Assembly (NCBI GenBank): GCA_021851885.1
Contig: JAJZBS010000002.1
Span: 3,162 to 67,161 of the forward strand
From: Actinomycetes bacterium
GTDB taxonomy: Bacteria; Actinomycetota; Acidimicrobiia; Acidimicrobiales; JAMCQF01
Length of the DNA stretch: 64,000 nucleotides
Direction: 5' to 3'
The number at the start of each line of letters is the position of its first letter. Positions within the stretch are counted from its first letter, which is position 1. The position numbers were made by a program, and so were the translations under genes. Below, one piece after another: positions 51,914 to 55,063 of this stretch. The notes beneath the pieces are model-generated. The model was not told the DNA's origin, made no database searches, and saw only the letters and a program-made list of their open reading frames with translations.

Positions 51914-52936
51914 GTGAATATTGACCACCCGTCCACCCGCAGCGAGACCCGGCCCGTGACGTCCTCCGCACCAGGCACATCTGAACTTGTGGTCAGCGAC
52001 AGCGTCCGTCATGCCGCGCGCCTGATCACCCAGATCGAGAACGGGGTCCCGGCCGCCCGCGCGGTCCTGGCCGAGTTACTGCCCCACTGCGGCTCGGCAC
52101 AGCTGGTCGGCATCACCGGCCCGCCGGGAGCGGGTAAGAGCACACTCACCGCGTCGCTCATCAAGGAGCTGCGGTCACAGGGCCGGAGCGTCGGGGTGAT
52201 CGCCGTCGACCCGTCGAGCCCCTTCTCCATGGGTGCCCTGCTCGGTGACCGTGACCGGATGCTCGAGGCGGCCAGCGGCGACCCTGGTGTCTTCATCCGC
52301 TCGCTCGCCTCGCGAGGTGTCCCGGGCGGGCTGGCCGCAGCCGTGAACGACGTCGTCGACGTGATGGACGCCATGGGCAAGGACGTGGTGATCGTGGAGA
52401 CCGTCGGCGTGGGCCAGGGTGAGCTGGAGATCGCCAAGATCGCCCACACCGTCGTGCTCGTGTTCGTCCCCGGGTACGGCGACGCGTTGCAGGCCATGAA
52501 GGCCGGGATCACGGAGATCGCCGACGTGGTTGCAGTCAACAAAGGCGACCTGGCCGAGGCGTCCAGGGCGGTCCAGGAACTGCGCGGCCAGGACTACGTC
52601 CGGCACGACCCGACGGCGGACCGGACCTGGGTGGTGCCGGTACAGAAGGTGTCGGCCCTCCGCAACGAGGGCATTGCCGAGCTCGTGGGGCTCATCGACG
52701 ACCACTACCGGTTCACAGCCCAGAGCGCCTGGCGGAGCGAGATCGAGCGCAACCGCCGCCACGCACAGTTCATGGCGTTCGTGACCGAGCGGCTGCGGGC
52801 CGAGCTGGCGTCGATCGACCTCGACGCCTTCGACGCCGGCTGGCTGCGTGATCCGTACGCGGCAGCAGAGGAATTCGTCACCGAGATCGTGAAGGCCCGT
52901 GCGGACAGAGGCGCCGTGGGCCTGGCAGCGAAATGA
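51914..52936 (+). CDS. meaB: Methylmalonyl-CoA-mutase-associated G-protein chaperone (MeaB/ArgK family)
   Basis: P-loop [20 protein letters not shown] and NKGD. The start is uncertain: GTG 51914 abuts the -10-like hexamer, and in-frame GTGs at 51956 and about 51989 are possible. Confidence 0.85.
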   Translation: [340 protein letters not shown]

Positions 52937-52949
52937 GAGCGAGGAACTG

Positions 52950-54620
52950 ATGAGCCAGGACGTTTCGACCGATTCCTTCGAGGCCCGCAAGCACGAGTGG
53001 GAGCAGCGCCGGGCGCGCTATGCCGACAAGTTGCGCCCGGGCAAGACGCTTTCGGGCCTGCCGGTCAAGACCGTCTACACGAAGGAGGACGTCACCGACA
53101 GCGATCTCGACGAGATGCCTGGCGTCTACCCCTTCACCCGTGGGCTCTACCCGGACGGCTATGCGCTCACCCCGTGGATGCAGCAGATGGTGTTCGGCTA
53201 CGGCACCATCGAGGAGACCCGCCAGAAGATGGAGAAGATGGTCGAGGAGGGCATGGAGGGCTACTTCGGCCACAAGGTCTTCAACACCGTCTACGACATC
53301 CCGTGCATGTACGGCATCGACGCCGACGATCCCGAGGCGGTCGGCAACCTCGGTCAGTGTGGGGTGCACATGAGCACCGGCGACGACTACGACGAGCTGA
53401 TCCGCGGCTGGGACCTGGAGTCCACGAACTTCTCGATGATCACCGGCGACAACTGCCTCCCTGCCCTCGCCCTGCTGGCGGCCGCGGTCGAGCGCCGGGG
53501 CGAGCCGTTCTCGAAGATGCACGGCAACTCGATGAACTGGTACCCCCGCATCGCCGTGCAGGACGTGCCGTCGTGGGAGCCCAAGTGGGGTTACGCCCTG
53601 ATCATCGATCTCGTCAAGTGGGCGATGGAGAACGCGCCCGACTGGAACCCGGTCAACATCTTCATGTACGGCATCTCCGAGGCGGGGGCCACCCCCGTCC
53701 AGGAGCTCGCCTACGGCCTGGCCTGGGGCAAGTCCATCATCGACGCCGGCCTGGCGGCCGGCCTGGCGCCTGACGACTTCATCGGCCGCCTGTCGTTCCA
53801 GATCGGCTGCACGGTCAACGTCTTCGAGGAGGTGGCCAAATTCCGGGCACACCGTCGCATGTGGGCGAAGATCTGTAAGGACGCCGGAGCCACCAAGCCG
53901 TCGAACATGCTGGCCCGGGTCCACGTGCACACGAGCGGGTACGTCCTGACCCAGCAGCAGCTGCTCAACAACACCGGCCGGATCACTCTCCAGACCCTGG
54001 CCGCCGTGCTCGGGGGCGTCGCCTCGATCCACACCTGCTCCTACGACGAGGCCGTCGGGGTGCCCACCGAGGAGTCCCACCGGACGGCGCTGCGCACGCA
54101 GCAGATCCTGATGTGGGAGAGCGGGCTGCGCGAGGTGGCCGACCCGCTCGGGGGCTCGTACTTCGTCGAGCAGCTGACCGACGACATGGAGGCGGCCGCC
54201 TGGGAGATCTACGACGAGATCGAGGCCGCCGGTGGCTACCAGCGCGGGATCGAGACCGGCGAGATCAAGCGCGCCATCGACAACTCCTCCTACGAGCTCA
54301 AGAAGATGGTCAACAGCGGTGAGCTGCCGGTGGTGGGCGTCAATCGCTATGTCACGGACGAGCAGGAGAACTACGAGCCGTTCCGGATCGATGAGTCGAT
54401 CGAAGAGAAGGCCAAGGCCCGGCTGCAGGACTACCGGGCACGGCGCGACGAGACCGCCGTCAGGGCGGCGCTCGAGAACGTGCGGGTGGCGTGCGAGGCG
54501 CTGAAGGAAGGCACGGGTTCGCTGATGCCTGCGCTGGTCGACGCAGCCCGGGCCGGCGCCACCAACGGCGAGATGATGGTGCCGATGCGCGACGCGTTCG
54601 GCTGGTTCGTCAGCGAGTGA
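52950..54620 (+). CDS. B12-dependent acyl-CoA mutase large (substrate-binding) subunit, divergent
   Basis: [24 protein letters not shown], and [31 protein letters not shown] are mutase-family blocks. The expected RQYAGF and GTIQNDILKE blocks instead read QQMVFGYG and [13 protein letters not shown]. Confidence 0.8.
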   Translation: [556 protein letters not shown]

Positions 54621-54652
54621 TCATCAACCCCGAACGCGTGAGATAGGAGTAG

Positions 54653-55063
54653 GTGGTGTCGAAGGAGCACATCAAGGTCCTCCTGGCCAAGAAGAAGATC
54701 GACGTCCACGGGCGCGGCACCAAGCTGCTCGCCCGCGAACTGCGCGACGCCGGGATGGAAGTCGTCTACTTCCGGTTCGGTGTCGTCGATGAGATCGCCG
54801 ATGCTGCGGTGCAGGAGGACGTCGACGTGGTCGGCGTGAGCGTCATGACCAGCGGCCAGATCCAGATCGCCCGCGGCCTCATCCCCGCGCTGAAAGCGCG
54901 TGGGCTCGACAATGTCCTGGTCATCATGGGGGGCATCATCCCCGAGGTCGACTACGAGCCGCTGTACGAGCTTGGCATCCACCGTTGCTTCGCCCCGGGC
55001 CTGCCTGGTGGAGCGGTCGCCGAGTACATCAGGGAGAACGTCGGGACCGCCACGCTCGGTTGA
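54653..55063 (+). CDS. Acyl-CoA mutase small (cobalamin-binding) subunit
   Basis: 136 aa with the DxHxxG motif (IDVHGRG), GVSVMTSG, and the MGGIIP Rossmann-like B12-binding domain. AGGAG lies upstream, with a GTG start at 54653/54656. Confidence 0.85.
   Translation: MVSKEHIKVLLAKKKIDVHGRGTKLLARELRDAGMEVVYFRFGVVDEIADAAVQEDVDVVGVSVMTSGQIQIARGLIPALKARGLDNVLVIMGGIIPEVDYEPLYELGIHRCFAPGLPGGAVAEYIRENVGTATLG

Follow-up and report, generated by a model that had tools for sequence, protein, structure and literature searches.

The window examined here is a stretch of 64,000 nt (positions 3,162 to 67,161 of contig JAJZBS010000002.1, assembly GCA_021851885.1, from an Actinomycetes bacterium) with a G+C content of ~69% in the actinobacterial style. 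Three co-directional genes in this window, which encode a MeaB-type G-protein chaperone and the large and small subunits of a putative B12-dependent acyl-CoA mutase, are the subject of this study. The open reading frame listing places these genes at the same coordinates as an earlier annotation of this DNA (the original prediction), and the sizes of the mutase subunits (556 and 136 aa), the DxHxxG motif of the small subunit, and all of the motifs quoted in that annotation were confirmed. The ATG of the large subunit gene is located 8 nt past a GAGG ribosome-binding site and 14 nt past the meaB stop codon. Neither a cobalamin riboswitch nor any other Rfam match was found within the 64-kb window, and scans for promoters, terminators and inverted repeats revealed nothing convincing.

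Family assignments were made with profile and structure searches. The large subunit matched PF01642 across profile positions 1–512 of 512 (E-value 2.9e-159) and TIGR00641 with 447 bits (cut-off 303.8). MeaB matched PF03308 (1.9e-81) and TIGR00750 (279.7 bits, cut-off 240.75), and the small subunit matched PF02310 (6e-19) and TIGR00640 (103.5 bits, cut-off 57.45). Both the P-loop GPPGAGKST and the NKGD motif were found in MeaB, with NK[GAS]D present in 29 of 29 homologs, and the gene adjoins that of the mutase in most loci. The D.H..G and GG motifs of the small subunit are kept in at least 95% of 37 distinct homologs. Searches of the PDB aligned the small subunit with 2yxb (1e-28) and HcmB (4r3u_C, 2e-23), and the large subunit with HcmA (4r3u_A, 5e-99), human methylmalonyl-CoA mutase (MCM; 2xij, 1.7e-91), P. 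shermanii MutB (1req, 5e-88) and IcmF (7e-46). With E-values of 5e-99 to 1e-88 against PDB chains, the resemblance to the mutase family greatly exceeds what chance would produce. An AlphaFold2 model of the large subunit (pLDDT 74, pTM 0.80) superimposed in Foldseek on MCM (4req_A, TMq 0.81) and on 4r3u (TMq 0.80–0.81). Thus, the MeaB protein and split, HcmAB-like mutase that had been proposed are upheld, and, on the evidence of TIM barrel, B12 domain and MeaB homology, the three genes clearly belong to the adenosylcobalamin (AdoCbl)-dependent acyl-CoA mutase superfamily. The relationship to known enzymes is distant: the large subunit is 35% identical to MCM and 37% identical to HcmA, and scores below the equivalog models for MCM (NF006944, 386.6 vs. 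876 bits) and IcmF (NF045497, 198 vs. 1500 bits).

The substrate pocket was compared by using HMMER alignments of the large subunit to HcmA (4r3u), human MCM (2xij) and P. shermanii MutB (1req, 5req, 1e1c). The three reference sequences were rebuilt from these alignments and then aligned with 115 members of the clade to which the window protein belongs, and the P. shermanii numbering used below was anchored by the mutant chains Y89F (5req) and H244A (1e1c). The clade-wide replacements comprise T77D, M78G, R82T, T85M, I86Q, R87Q, Q88M, Y89V and A90F; S114N, A116V (the position of HCM Asp117, HCM denoting 2-hydroxyisobutyryl-CoA mutase), F117Y, A139C and T166I; T195N, I196S, Q197M, a deletion of D199, I200W, L201Y, K202P, E203R, R207Q and N208D; and S241F, G242M, H244G, Q246S, F287Q, Q330H and N366C. 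An insertion of six residues, GYFGHK, also is present. The residues that are kept are Tyr75, Tyr79, Trp84, Gly91, Asp118, Asn198, Asn236, Tyr243, Glu247 and Arg283, as well as Arg326, His328, Ser362, His364 and Glu370. Among these, Tyr243, Glu247, Glu370, His328, Arg283 and Arg326 presumably contact the cofactor or the radical.

We take Tyr-89 and Arg-207 to form the carboxylate clamp of MCM, and His-244 and Gln-197 to polarize the thioester. In the window protein the residues Tyr89, Arg207, His244 and Gln197 of MCM correspond to Val81, Gln204, Gly241 and Met195, each of which is invariant or nearly so across the 115 members. In total, 30 positions in the pocket and CoA channel are unlike both MCM and HCM, and 25 of these are invariant, compared to a background of 28% invariance over all columns and pairwise identities of 60–99% between members. 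New invariant polar residues, Arg200, His327, Asp205 and Gln284, also appear in the pocket alignment. As the replacement residues are invariant in proteins that are as little as 60% identical, the pattern argues for selection on a working active site instead of decay or drift. The original prediction had deduced altered specificity regions from a hand alignment in which the Tyr89 region and the block equivalent to GTIQNDILKE were placed correctly, and the changes are real. However, the true insertion is the hexapeptide and not the 21-aa string that had been suggested, and the replacement of His244 by Gly, that of Gln197 by Met, and ~25 further changes had been overlooked.

The residues at positions 82, 87, 89, 116, 197, 207, 244, 330 and 366 provide a compact signature which reads TQVVMQGHC in the clade, RRYAQRHQN in MCM, RRIDQQHQN in HCM, and RRFAQQHQN in representatives resembling isobutyryl-CoA mutase (ICM). 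The earlier assertion that the pocket matches no MCM, ICM or HCM pattern therefore holds for the signature as a whole, but not for position 207 at which Gln is the state also found in ICM and HCM and which by itself is not unprecedented. By these residues, the clade is placed in the mutase superfamily yet lacks the determinants of MCM, ICM/IcmF and HCM; the signature comparison took in MCM, HCM and ICM-like sequences, with the ethylmalonyl-CoA (ECM), pivalyl-CoA (PCM) and RCM mutases outside it.

The determinants of ICM, IcmF and PCM are, we assume, Phe (or Leu) at position 89 and Gln at position 207, together with His244, Gln197, Gln330 and Asn366. Among these, only Gln207 is present in the window protein which has Val at 89, Gly at 244, Met at 197, His at 330 and Cys at 366. 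Gln207 combined with a small aliphatic residue at 89 would suit a substrate without a carboxylate, and the split subunits recall IcmAB, so the protein might be a standard mutase of the ICM or PCM type, with isobutyryl/butyryl-CoA or pivalyl/isovaleryl-CoA as its substrate, whose motifs have drifted. Nevertheless, this explanation is very improbable. The ICM-like representatives retain Arg82, Arg87, Gln197, His244, Gln330 and Asn366, the IcmF chains are much farther away (7e-46 by sequence, 26% identity by Foldseek), and new residues that stay invariant while overall identity falls to 60% bespeak selection and not drift. Moreover, the conserved neighboring genes described below are unlike those of valine or leucine catabolism and include no carboxylase gene.

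The relationship with HCM is closer, as HcmA and HcmB are the nearest solved relatives and HcmA also carries Gln at position 207. A mutase of the HCM type that acts on larger tertiary 2-hydroxyacyl-CoAs would convert a 2-hydroxy-2-alkylacyl-CoA or a 1-hydroxycycloalkane-1-carboxyl-CoA to the 3- or 2-hydroxy isomer, after which the adjacent short-chain dehydrogenase/reductase (SDR) would oxidize the product and a thiolase, an enoyl-CoA hydratase or the CoA-transferase-like protein acting as a hydrolase would cleave it. An SDR gene follows that of the small subunit either directly or after one enoyl-CoA hydratase gene, genes for 3-hydroxyacyl-CoA dehydrogenase and thiolase are common in the loci, and an SDR gene also is located beside the mutase in the characterized HCM clusters of Desulfosarcina and Desulfococcus (PMC7888143). 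Even so, the pocket fits poorly. The HCM determinants reportedly described by Kurteva-Yaneva et al. in 2015 are Ile90, Asp117, Gln208 and His245 in HcmA numbering; in the alignment with 4r3u_A only Gln208 is kept, with Ile90 and Asp117 changed to Val and His245 to Gly. No gene for a thiamine-dependent 2-hydroxyacyl-CoA lyase/synthase or for a tert-alcohol monooxygenase was seen in any locus that was read, the clade-specific patterns did not retrieve D. biacutus or D. cetonica, and the SDR encoded next to the small subunit is nearer to dienoyl-CoA reductases than to hydroxyacyl-CoA dehydrogenases. The Asp117 that is replaced is the residue that binds the substrate hydroxyl in HCM. An HCM-type activity consequently is considered unlikely. 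The acetone-pathway HCM of Desulfococcus/Desulfosarcina was set aside as the same enzyme on indirect grounds, namely gene surroundings that differ and contain a thiamine-dependent enzyme (PMC7888143) and its absence from the sequences retrieved by the pattern scan.

The isolation of the clade was assessed at several levels. In a search of 5.8 billion sequences, the best 120 matches to the large subunit all were 64–100% identical to it and carried no names other than 'methylmalonyl-CoA mutase N-terminal domain' and 'acyl-CoA mutase large subunit family protein'. In a library clustered at 50% identity all of the clade falls into one cluster with 1002 bits, followed by a representative with 427 bits and 39% identity. 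A neighbor-joining tree of 147 representatives joined the clade first to a sister form (L034par, 46% identity; L numbers designate fetched loci) and then to P0121, P0123, P0127 and P0133. These five share the site of the insertion and the absence of Arg82 with the clade, and all are proteins from uncultured metagenome-assembled genomes (MAGs) with generic names. The expectation that the enzyme would not cluster tightly with a characterized subfamily thus was borne out at the level of sequence. No paper that describes the clade or ascribes a function to it was found in full-text literature searches: a limonene-methanogenic paper deals only with an ordinary MCM, and a paper on an engineered Lcm is without a relevant phylogeny.

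The sister mutases (L034:857-2524, L036:9898-11571 and L038:9914-12073) are 44–48% identical to the window enzyme, have the pocket signature TQVVMVLHC, and carry NWLLKSFCVDNPDFPP in place of the motif of the window clade; the reading frames in L036 and L038 apparently are frameshifted in the assemblies. A second, different mutase is encoded ~7 kb upstream of the clade mutase in the MAG locus L019 (L019:744-2510), where it accompanies the only MeaB of the locus. This protein is 36% identical; its Tyr89 site reads RQFMGF, and Gln takes the place of His244. Among the 50%-identity representatives in the tree (P0121–P0269) many other clades also are without His244 (N, D, G, V, L, Q, I or E instead), Tyr89 or Arg207. 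The mutase family is under-explored, and the clade is one of several unknowns, though one with cultured hosts.

Clade-specific peptide patterns retrieved 37 loci from 185,579 species genomes. The cultured hosts are Acrocarpospora macrocephala, Sphaerimonospora, Microbispora, Streptomyces sp. NPDC050625, Sphaerisporangium viridialbum and Thermobifida cellulosilytica. The MAG hosts are assigned to Acidimicrobiia, Microthrixaceae, Nostocoides, Nitriliruptoraceae, Steroidobacteraceae and Gammaproteobacteria, and also to Desulfosarcina, Desulfobacterales, Desulfomonilaceae, Syntrophales and Desulfuromonadales. The locus from an Acidimicrobiaceae MAG (L004) is 96% identical to, and collinear with, the window. 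No clade member was located on a plasmid.

The loss of His244, Tyr89 and Arg207 could signify a dead or structural paralog comparable to the β chain MutA, and the presence of Desulfobacterota typical of hydrocarbon-rich sediments among the hosts could point to an alkylsuccinyl-CoA mutase of anaerobic hydrocarbon degradation. Both notions are barely credible. The protein is encoded with its own MeaB and with its own B12 subunit in which DxHxxG is conserved, it matches catalytic α chains far better than β chains (5e-88 with 1req_A vs. 2e-29 with 1e1c_B), and its pocket residues are invariant. An alkylsuccinyl-CoA substrate would be expected to preserve the carboxylate site formed by Arg207 and Tyr89, no glycyl-radical alkylsuccinate synthase genes were found in the loci, and the clade also occurs in cultured, presumably aerobic actinomycetes (Thermobifida, Microbispora, Streptomyces, Sphaerisporangium).

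The gene neighborhood was analyzed by tblastn of the window proteins against all 42 fetched loci, a set that includes duplicate contigs, and by gene calling and Pfam searches in five loci. The conserved core consists of MeaB, the two mutase subunits, one or two enoyl-CoA hydratases, an SDR, and an α/β pair of CoA-transferase-like proteins (PF01144), to which acyl-CoA dehydrogenases, acyl-CoA synthetases, 3-hydroxyacyl-CoA dehydrogenase and thiolase commonly are added. This module extends from Streptosporangiales and Acidimicrobiia to Steroidobacteraceae, Desulfobacterales and Syntrophales. The link to surrounding enoyl-CoA hydratase, SDR and acyl-CoA dehydrogenase genes that had been surmised from the window therefore is substantiated by synteny that is conserved across phyla and that includes the CoA-transferase-like pair.

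Table 1. Genes of the mutase locus and its surroundings in the 64,000-nt window (SDR, short-chain dehydrogenase/reductase; ACAD, acyl-CoA dehydrogenase)
Feature	Position	Strand	Remarks
APH-type phosphotransferase	43575-44591	+	
Acyl-CoA synthetase	44704-46323	-	NCBIfam generic ligase match
Acyl-CoA synthetase	46338-47888	+	NCBIfam generic ligase match
ACAD (ACAD_47915)	47915-49060	+	NCBIfam generic ACAD match
SDR, co-operonic with CoA-transferase-like pair	49097..49900	-	PF13561-type; NCBIfam matches to generic SDR only
β subunit of CoA-transferase-like pair	49870..50721	-	GTG start overlaps α stop (GTGA); PDB matches GctB, AibB, IpdB
α subunit, glutaconate-CoA-transferase family	50718..51728	-	Divergent from meaB; PF01144, E 3.4e-22
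MeaB-type G-protein chaperone	51914..52936	+	340 aa counted from GTG; true start possibly slightly downstream
Acyl-CoA mutase large subunit, substrate-binding TIM barrel, non-canonical pocket	52950..54620	+	556 aa
B12-binding small subunit	54653..55063	+	136 aa; DxHxxG = D17-V-H19-G-R-G22
SDR resembling 2,4-dienoyl-CoA reductase	55134..55928	+	Directly downstream of small subunit; NF005811 match
MerR regulator	56024-56569	+	Pfam/NCBIfam
MaoC hydratase	56745-57227		Pfam/NCBIfam
ACAD	57244-58449		Pfam/NCBIfam
KstD-like FAD_binding_2	58459-59922	-	Pfam/NCBIfam
ACAD	60014-61219		Pfam/NCBIfam
Enoyl-CoA hydratase	61348-62139		Pfam/NCBIfam
SDR	62215-62991		Pfam/NCBIfam
MerR regulator	63081-63602	+	Pfam/NCBIfam

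Conservation differs between the parts of the locus (Table 1). The 43575..49060 block, which contains the APH gene, the two synthetase genes and an acyl-CoA dehydrogenase gene, is kept at 59–93% identity in L004, L005, L009, L010, L013, L018 and L032, and Pfam searches found APH, AMP-binding and acyl-CoA dehydrogenase domains in L041. The 56024..63602 block is entire in L004 and L032, and genes of the types of its enoyl-CoA hydratase and last SDR adjoin the mutase in Proteobacteria and Desulfobacterota at 38–42% identity. The SDR that is co-operonic with the CoA-transferase-like pair is 70–90% identical in actinobacterial loci, where it adjoins the β subunit. The SDR encoded after the small subunit matched the 2,4-dienoyl-CoA reductase model NF005811 with 262.5 bits, below the cut-off of 318 but well above the next family at 187 bits. 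Where actinobacterial loci possess this gene, among them the sister-clade loci L036 and L038, it is near to the mutase at 72–93% identity. Some actinobacterial loci, mostly of Streptosporangiales, add such a dienoyl-CoA-reductase-like SDR next to the small subunit, Glyoxalase_4, SnoaL and APH.

Several further observations were made in these neighborhoods. The two paralogous MerR regulators have near-identical helix-turn-helix segments (STRTIRYYEELGILP...TSGGTRRYP) and their genes bracket the downstream acyl-CoA dehydrogenase, enoyl-CoA hydratase and SDR block; TetR regulators are found in place of MerR in proteobacterial and Desulfobacterota loci. A FadH-like old yellow enzyme (OYE)-type dienoyl-CoA reductase with a Pyr_redox_2 domain is encoded near to the mutase in a few proteobacterial and Desulfobacterota loci (L001 18817-20745) and could be a non-orthologous replacement of the SDR next to the small subunit; as a conserved partner it was dropped, being present in five loci only. 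An archaeal-type HMG-CoA synthase fused to DUF35/zf-ChsH2, together with a thiolase, is encoded immediately upstream of meaB in a Desulfomonilaceae MAG (L042, the same contig as L025; 6230-8844), and was rejected as a core member because it is confined to this single contig. A DUF7064/DUF7065 protein is encoded near to the mutase cluster in the window (34018-35043, + strand), in a Desulfobacterales MAG (L001:1942-2979) and in Acrocarpospora (L006, ~18894). The window also carries at least four AMP-binding acyl-CoA synthetase genes (14714-18951, 44704-47888), several genes for zinc-dependent alcohol dehydrogenases, SDR, SnoaL, EthD and Glyoxalase_4, and an ABC transporter (22973-26960). Overall the gene content of the window is that of an extensive island devoted to the catabolism of organic acids.

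The CoA-transferase-like pair was recovered in 29 of the 42 loci; the loci without it are short or truncated at an end, apart from L026, whose flanks are complete. In Proteobacteria and Desulfobacterota the two subunits are fused into one polypeptide of ~600 aa. In the window the α, β and SDR genes are translationally coupled on the minus strand, divergent from meaB, with the SDR gene overlapping the β stop codon. A pair that is 73–84% identical to that of the window is located directly downstream of the sister mutase in L034, L036 and L038; as the sister clade also is tied to the pair, the coupling between mutase and CoA-transferase-like protein would predate the split of the two mutase forms. 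The α subunit matched AibA (5mzw_A, 2.6e-27), IpdA (6co6_A, 1.9e-26) and GctA (1poi_A, 1.9e-25), and the β subunit matched GctB (1poi_B, 5.4e-23), AibB (1e-15) and IpdB (7e-14). In a family alignment of 34 homologs, the segment IIVESG which contains the catalytic Glu of GctB is replaced by LVGFDA or VVGYSG. As the transferase Glu is gone, the pair is predicted very unlikely to be a true CoA-transferase. The position of IpdA Glu105, a residue deduced from the sole difference between chains 6co6_A and 6coj_A, is occupied by Gly (TEYTGL vs. REMDEG) as in AibA (REHDGY), in a segment that aligns with low confidence. Judged by these homologies, the pair probably is a decarboxylase or C–C hydrolase that acts on an unsaturated or β-keto acyl-CoA, like AibAB or IpdAB.

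These properties bear on the possibility that the mutase linearizes methyl-branched dicarboxylyl-CoAs, converting a 2-methyl-dicarboxylyl-CoA to a glutaryl- or adipyl-type CoA ester which then would be dehydrogenated and subjected to biotin-free decarboxylation by the AibAB-like protein. The partner pair belongs to the glutaconate-CoA-transferase family without the transferase Glu, its α subunit is closest to AibA of 3-methylglutaconyl-CoA decarboxylase, and the scpA-argK-scpB-scpC succinate-to-propionate operon of E. coli offers a functional parallel. In addition, ACAD_47915 scored 289 bits with the model for non-decarboxylating glutaryl-CoA dehydrogenase, a methylmalonyl-CoA-epimerase-like Glyoxalase_4 gene is present in seven loci, six of which have the clade mutase, and Arg200, His327, Asp205 and Gln284 could bind a distal carboxylate. 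The proposal nonetheless is improbable. The carboxylate site of MCM is missing, with Val in place of Tyr89 and Gln in place of Arg207, the new pocket residues mostly are apolar, β-oxidation is not normally blocked by 2-methyl branches so that the need for a mutase is not evident, both the dehydrogenase (289 vs. 470 bits) and the epimerase (49.8 vs. 115 bits) are far below the cut-offs of their models, and the epimerase gene is missing in proteobacterial and Desulfobacterota loci.

Taken together, family membership, cofactor motifs, pocket remodeling, purifying selection, the isolation of the clade and synteny make it probable that the three genes specify a functional AdoCbl-dependent acyl-CoA mutase of a distinct and so far uncharacterized subfamily, along with its MeaB chaperone; from the same evidence we infer the activity, its direction, the class of substrate and the role in a pathway. 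With loss of the clamp formed by Tyr89 and Arg207 and gain of Val, Met, Ile, Cys, Phe, Trp and Tyr residues, the pocket would accommodate a bulkier, mostly apolar acyl group, and the new invariant Arg200, Asp205, His327 and Gln284 would leave room for a distal polar group. Thus, the specificity probably is new and directed to a bulky, mainly apolar acyl-CoA without an α-carboxylate which is branched or alicyclic and possibly bears a distal polar group. The likely task of the mutase would be to eliminate a branch or a ring feature that stands in the way of β-oxidation. As the hosts include both aerobic actinomycetes and strict anaerobes and acyl-CoA ligase genes are adjoining, the data suggest as the substrate a natural organic acid that is converted straight to its CoA ester, in preference to the product of an oxygenase.

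Several points weigh against this reading. His244, which is catalytically important in MCM and for which an H244A structure exists (1e1c), is Gly in the clade, and several CoA-binding residues (Arg82, Arg87, Thr77, Met78) are altered, so that the chemistry, and even the thiol carrier, could differ. Odd pockets also occur in many other metagenomic mutase clades and an unusual pocket alone is no proof of new chemistry. The AlphaFold2 model is only moderately confident (pLDDT 74, with residues 32–75 below 50) and informs at the level of the fold, the substrate class derives from residue types in an alignment and not from geometry, and the neighboring genes match generic or sub-threshold NCBIfam and Pfam models only.

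By analogy with MCM, ICM and HCM, MeaB, powered by GTP, would deliver AdoCbl to the small subunit of the proposed mutase and protect it there, and in this subunit His19 of DxHxxG would take over as the lower ligand. Entry of the substrate into the TIM barrel of the large subunit would set off homolysis of the Co–C bond, the 5′-deoxyadenosyl radical would take a hydrogen atom from the carbon neighboring Cα, and the CoA-thioester group would undergo a 1,2-migration after which the hydrogen would be returned. The enzyme would work within a β-oxidation-like module of ligases, acyl-CoA dehydrogenases, enoyl-CoA hydratases, SDRs, 3-hydroxyacyl-CoA dehydrogenase and the glutaconate-CoA-transferase-fold protein.

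A more far-reaching possibility, which is put forward tentatively, is that the clade performs a new type of B12 rearrangement, either a CoA-thioester shift on an alicyclic or quaternary-carbon acyl-CoA or the linearization of a branched dicarboxylyl-CoA, that is coupled obligatorily to the glutaconate-CoA-transferase-fold decarboxylase or hydrolase. Isomerization of 1-methyl- or 1-hydroxy-cycloalkanecarboxyl-CoA would be among the candidates, and the loss of His244 would imply a different way of activating the migrating thioester. If correct, this rearrangement would be an oxygen-independent route past blocks in β-oxidation that is common to aerobic actinomycetes and to sulfate-reducing or syntrophic Desulfobacterota.

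The known specificities of acyl-CoA mutases are, to our knowledge, few: MCM, ICM/IcmF, PCM, ECM and HCM/RCM. Earlier discoveries of new mutases led to pathways or biocatalysts, as with the ethylmalonyl-CoA pathway, the degradation of methyl tert-butyl ether and acetone, and engineered CO2-fixation modules. The present clade can be approached in cultured, tractable hosts (Thermobifida cellulosilytica TB100, Acrocarpospora macrocephala NBRC 16266, Sphaerisporangium viridialbum and Microbispora), and the conserved set of partners narrows the search for the substrate. The identity of the substrate would give a function to a module of bacteria from activated sludge, soil and anoxic sediment. It also would show how far the radical mechanism of MCM tolerates the loss of canonical catalytic residues, including the supposedly essential His244.

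Compared with known systems, the clade resembles HcmAB of Aquincola tertiaricarbonis (4R3U) in its split into subunits of ~560 and ~135 aa, its MeaB partner, and Gln at position 207. It differs in the low overall identity (37%), in the replacement of Ile90 and Asp117 by Val, of His245 by Gly and of the Gln at position 197 by Met, in the absence of Arg82 and Arg87, in the six-residue insertion, and in a genomic context without genes for tert-butyl compounds or 2-hydroxyisobutyric acid (2-HIBA). With MCM (MutB, 1REQ/4REQ; human MUT, 2XIJ) it shares the fold, the cofactor system, the dependence on MeaB/MMAA, and Tyr243, Glu247, Glu370, His328, Arg283, Arg326 and Asp118. However, the B12 domain is a separate polypeptide, there is no MutA-like β chain, and Tyr89, Arg207 and His244 are absent. 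Gln at position 207 and an apolar residue at position 89 are common to the clade, IcmAB/IcmF and PCM, and IcmAB also is split, whereas IcmF is only 26% identical and has a G-protein fusion that the clade lacks. With regard to ECM, crotonyl-CoA carboxylase/reductase is missing from the gene context of the clade. The scpA-argK-scpB-scpC operon of E. coli, which we take to encode an MCM, a MeaB-like GTPase, a crotonase-family decarboxylase and a CoA-transferase, likewise joins a mutase and its G-protein chaperone with a crotonase-family enzyme and a CoA-transferase-type protein, but differs from the present loci in the mutase pocket, in the CoA-transferase-like family (glutaconate fold with the Glu lost in the clade), and in the extra SDR, acyl-CoA dehydrogenase and ligase genes of the latter. 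Finally, the partner pair shares the glutaconate-CoA-transferase fold and the loss of the canonical Glu with AibAB (5MZW), the 3-methylglutaconyl-CoA decarboxylase, and with IpdAB (6CO6), the steroid ring-opening hydrolase, and is about equally, though distantly, near to AibAB, IpdAB and GctAB (E-values 1e-27 to 1e-14).

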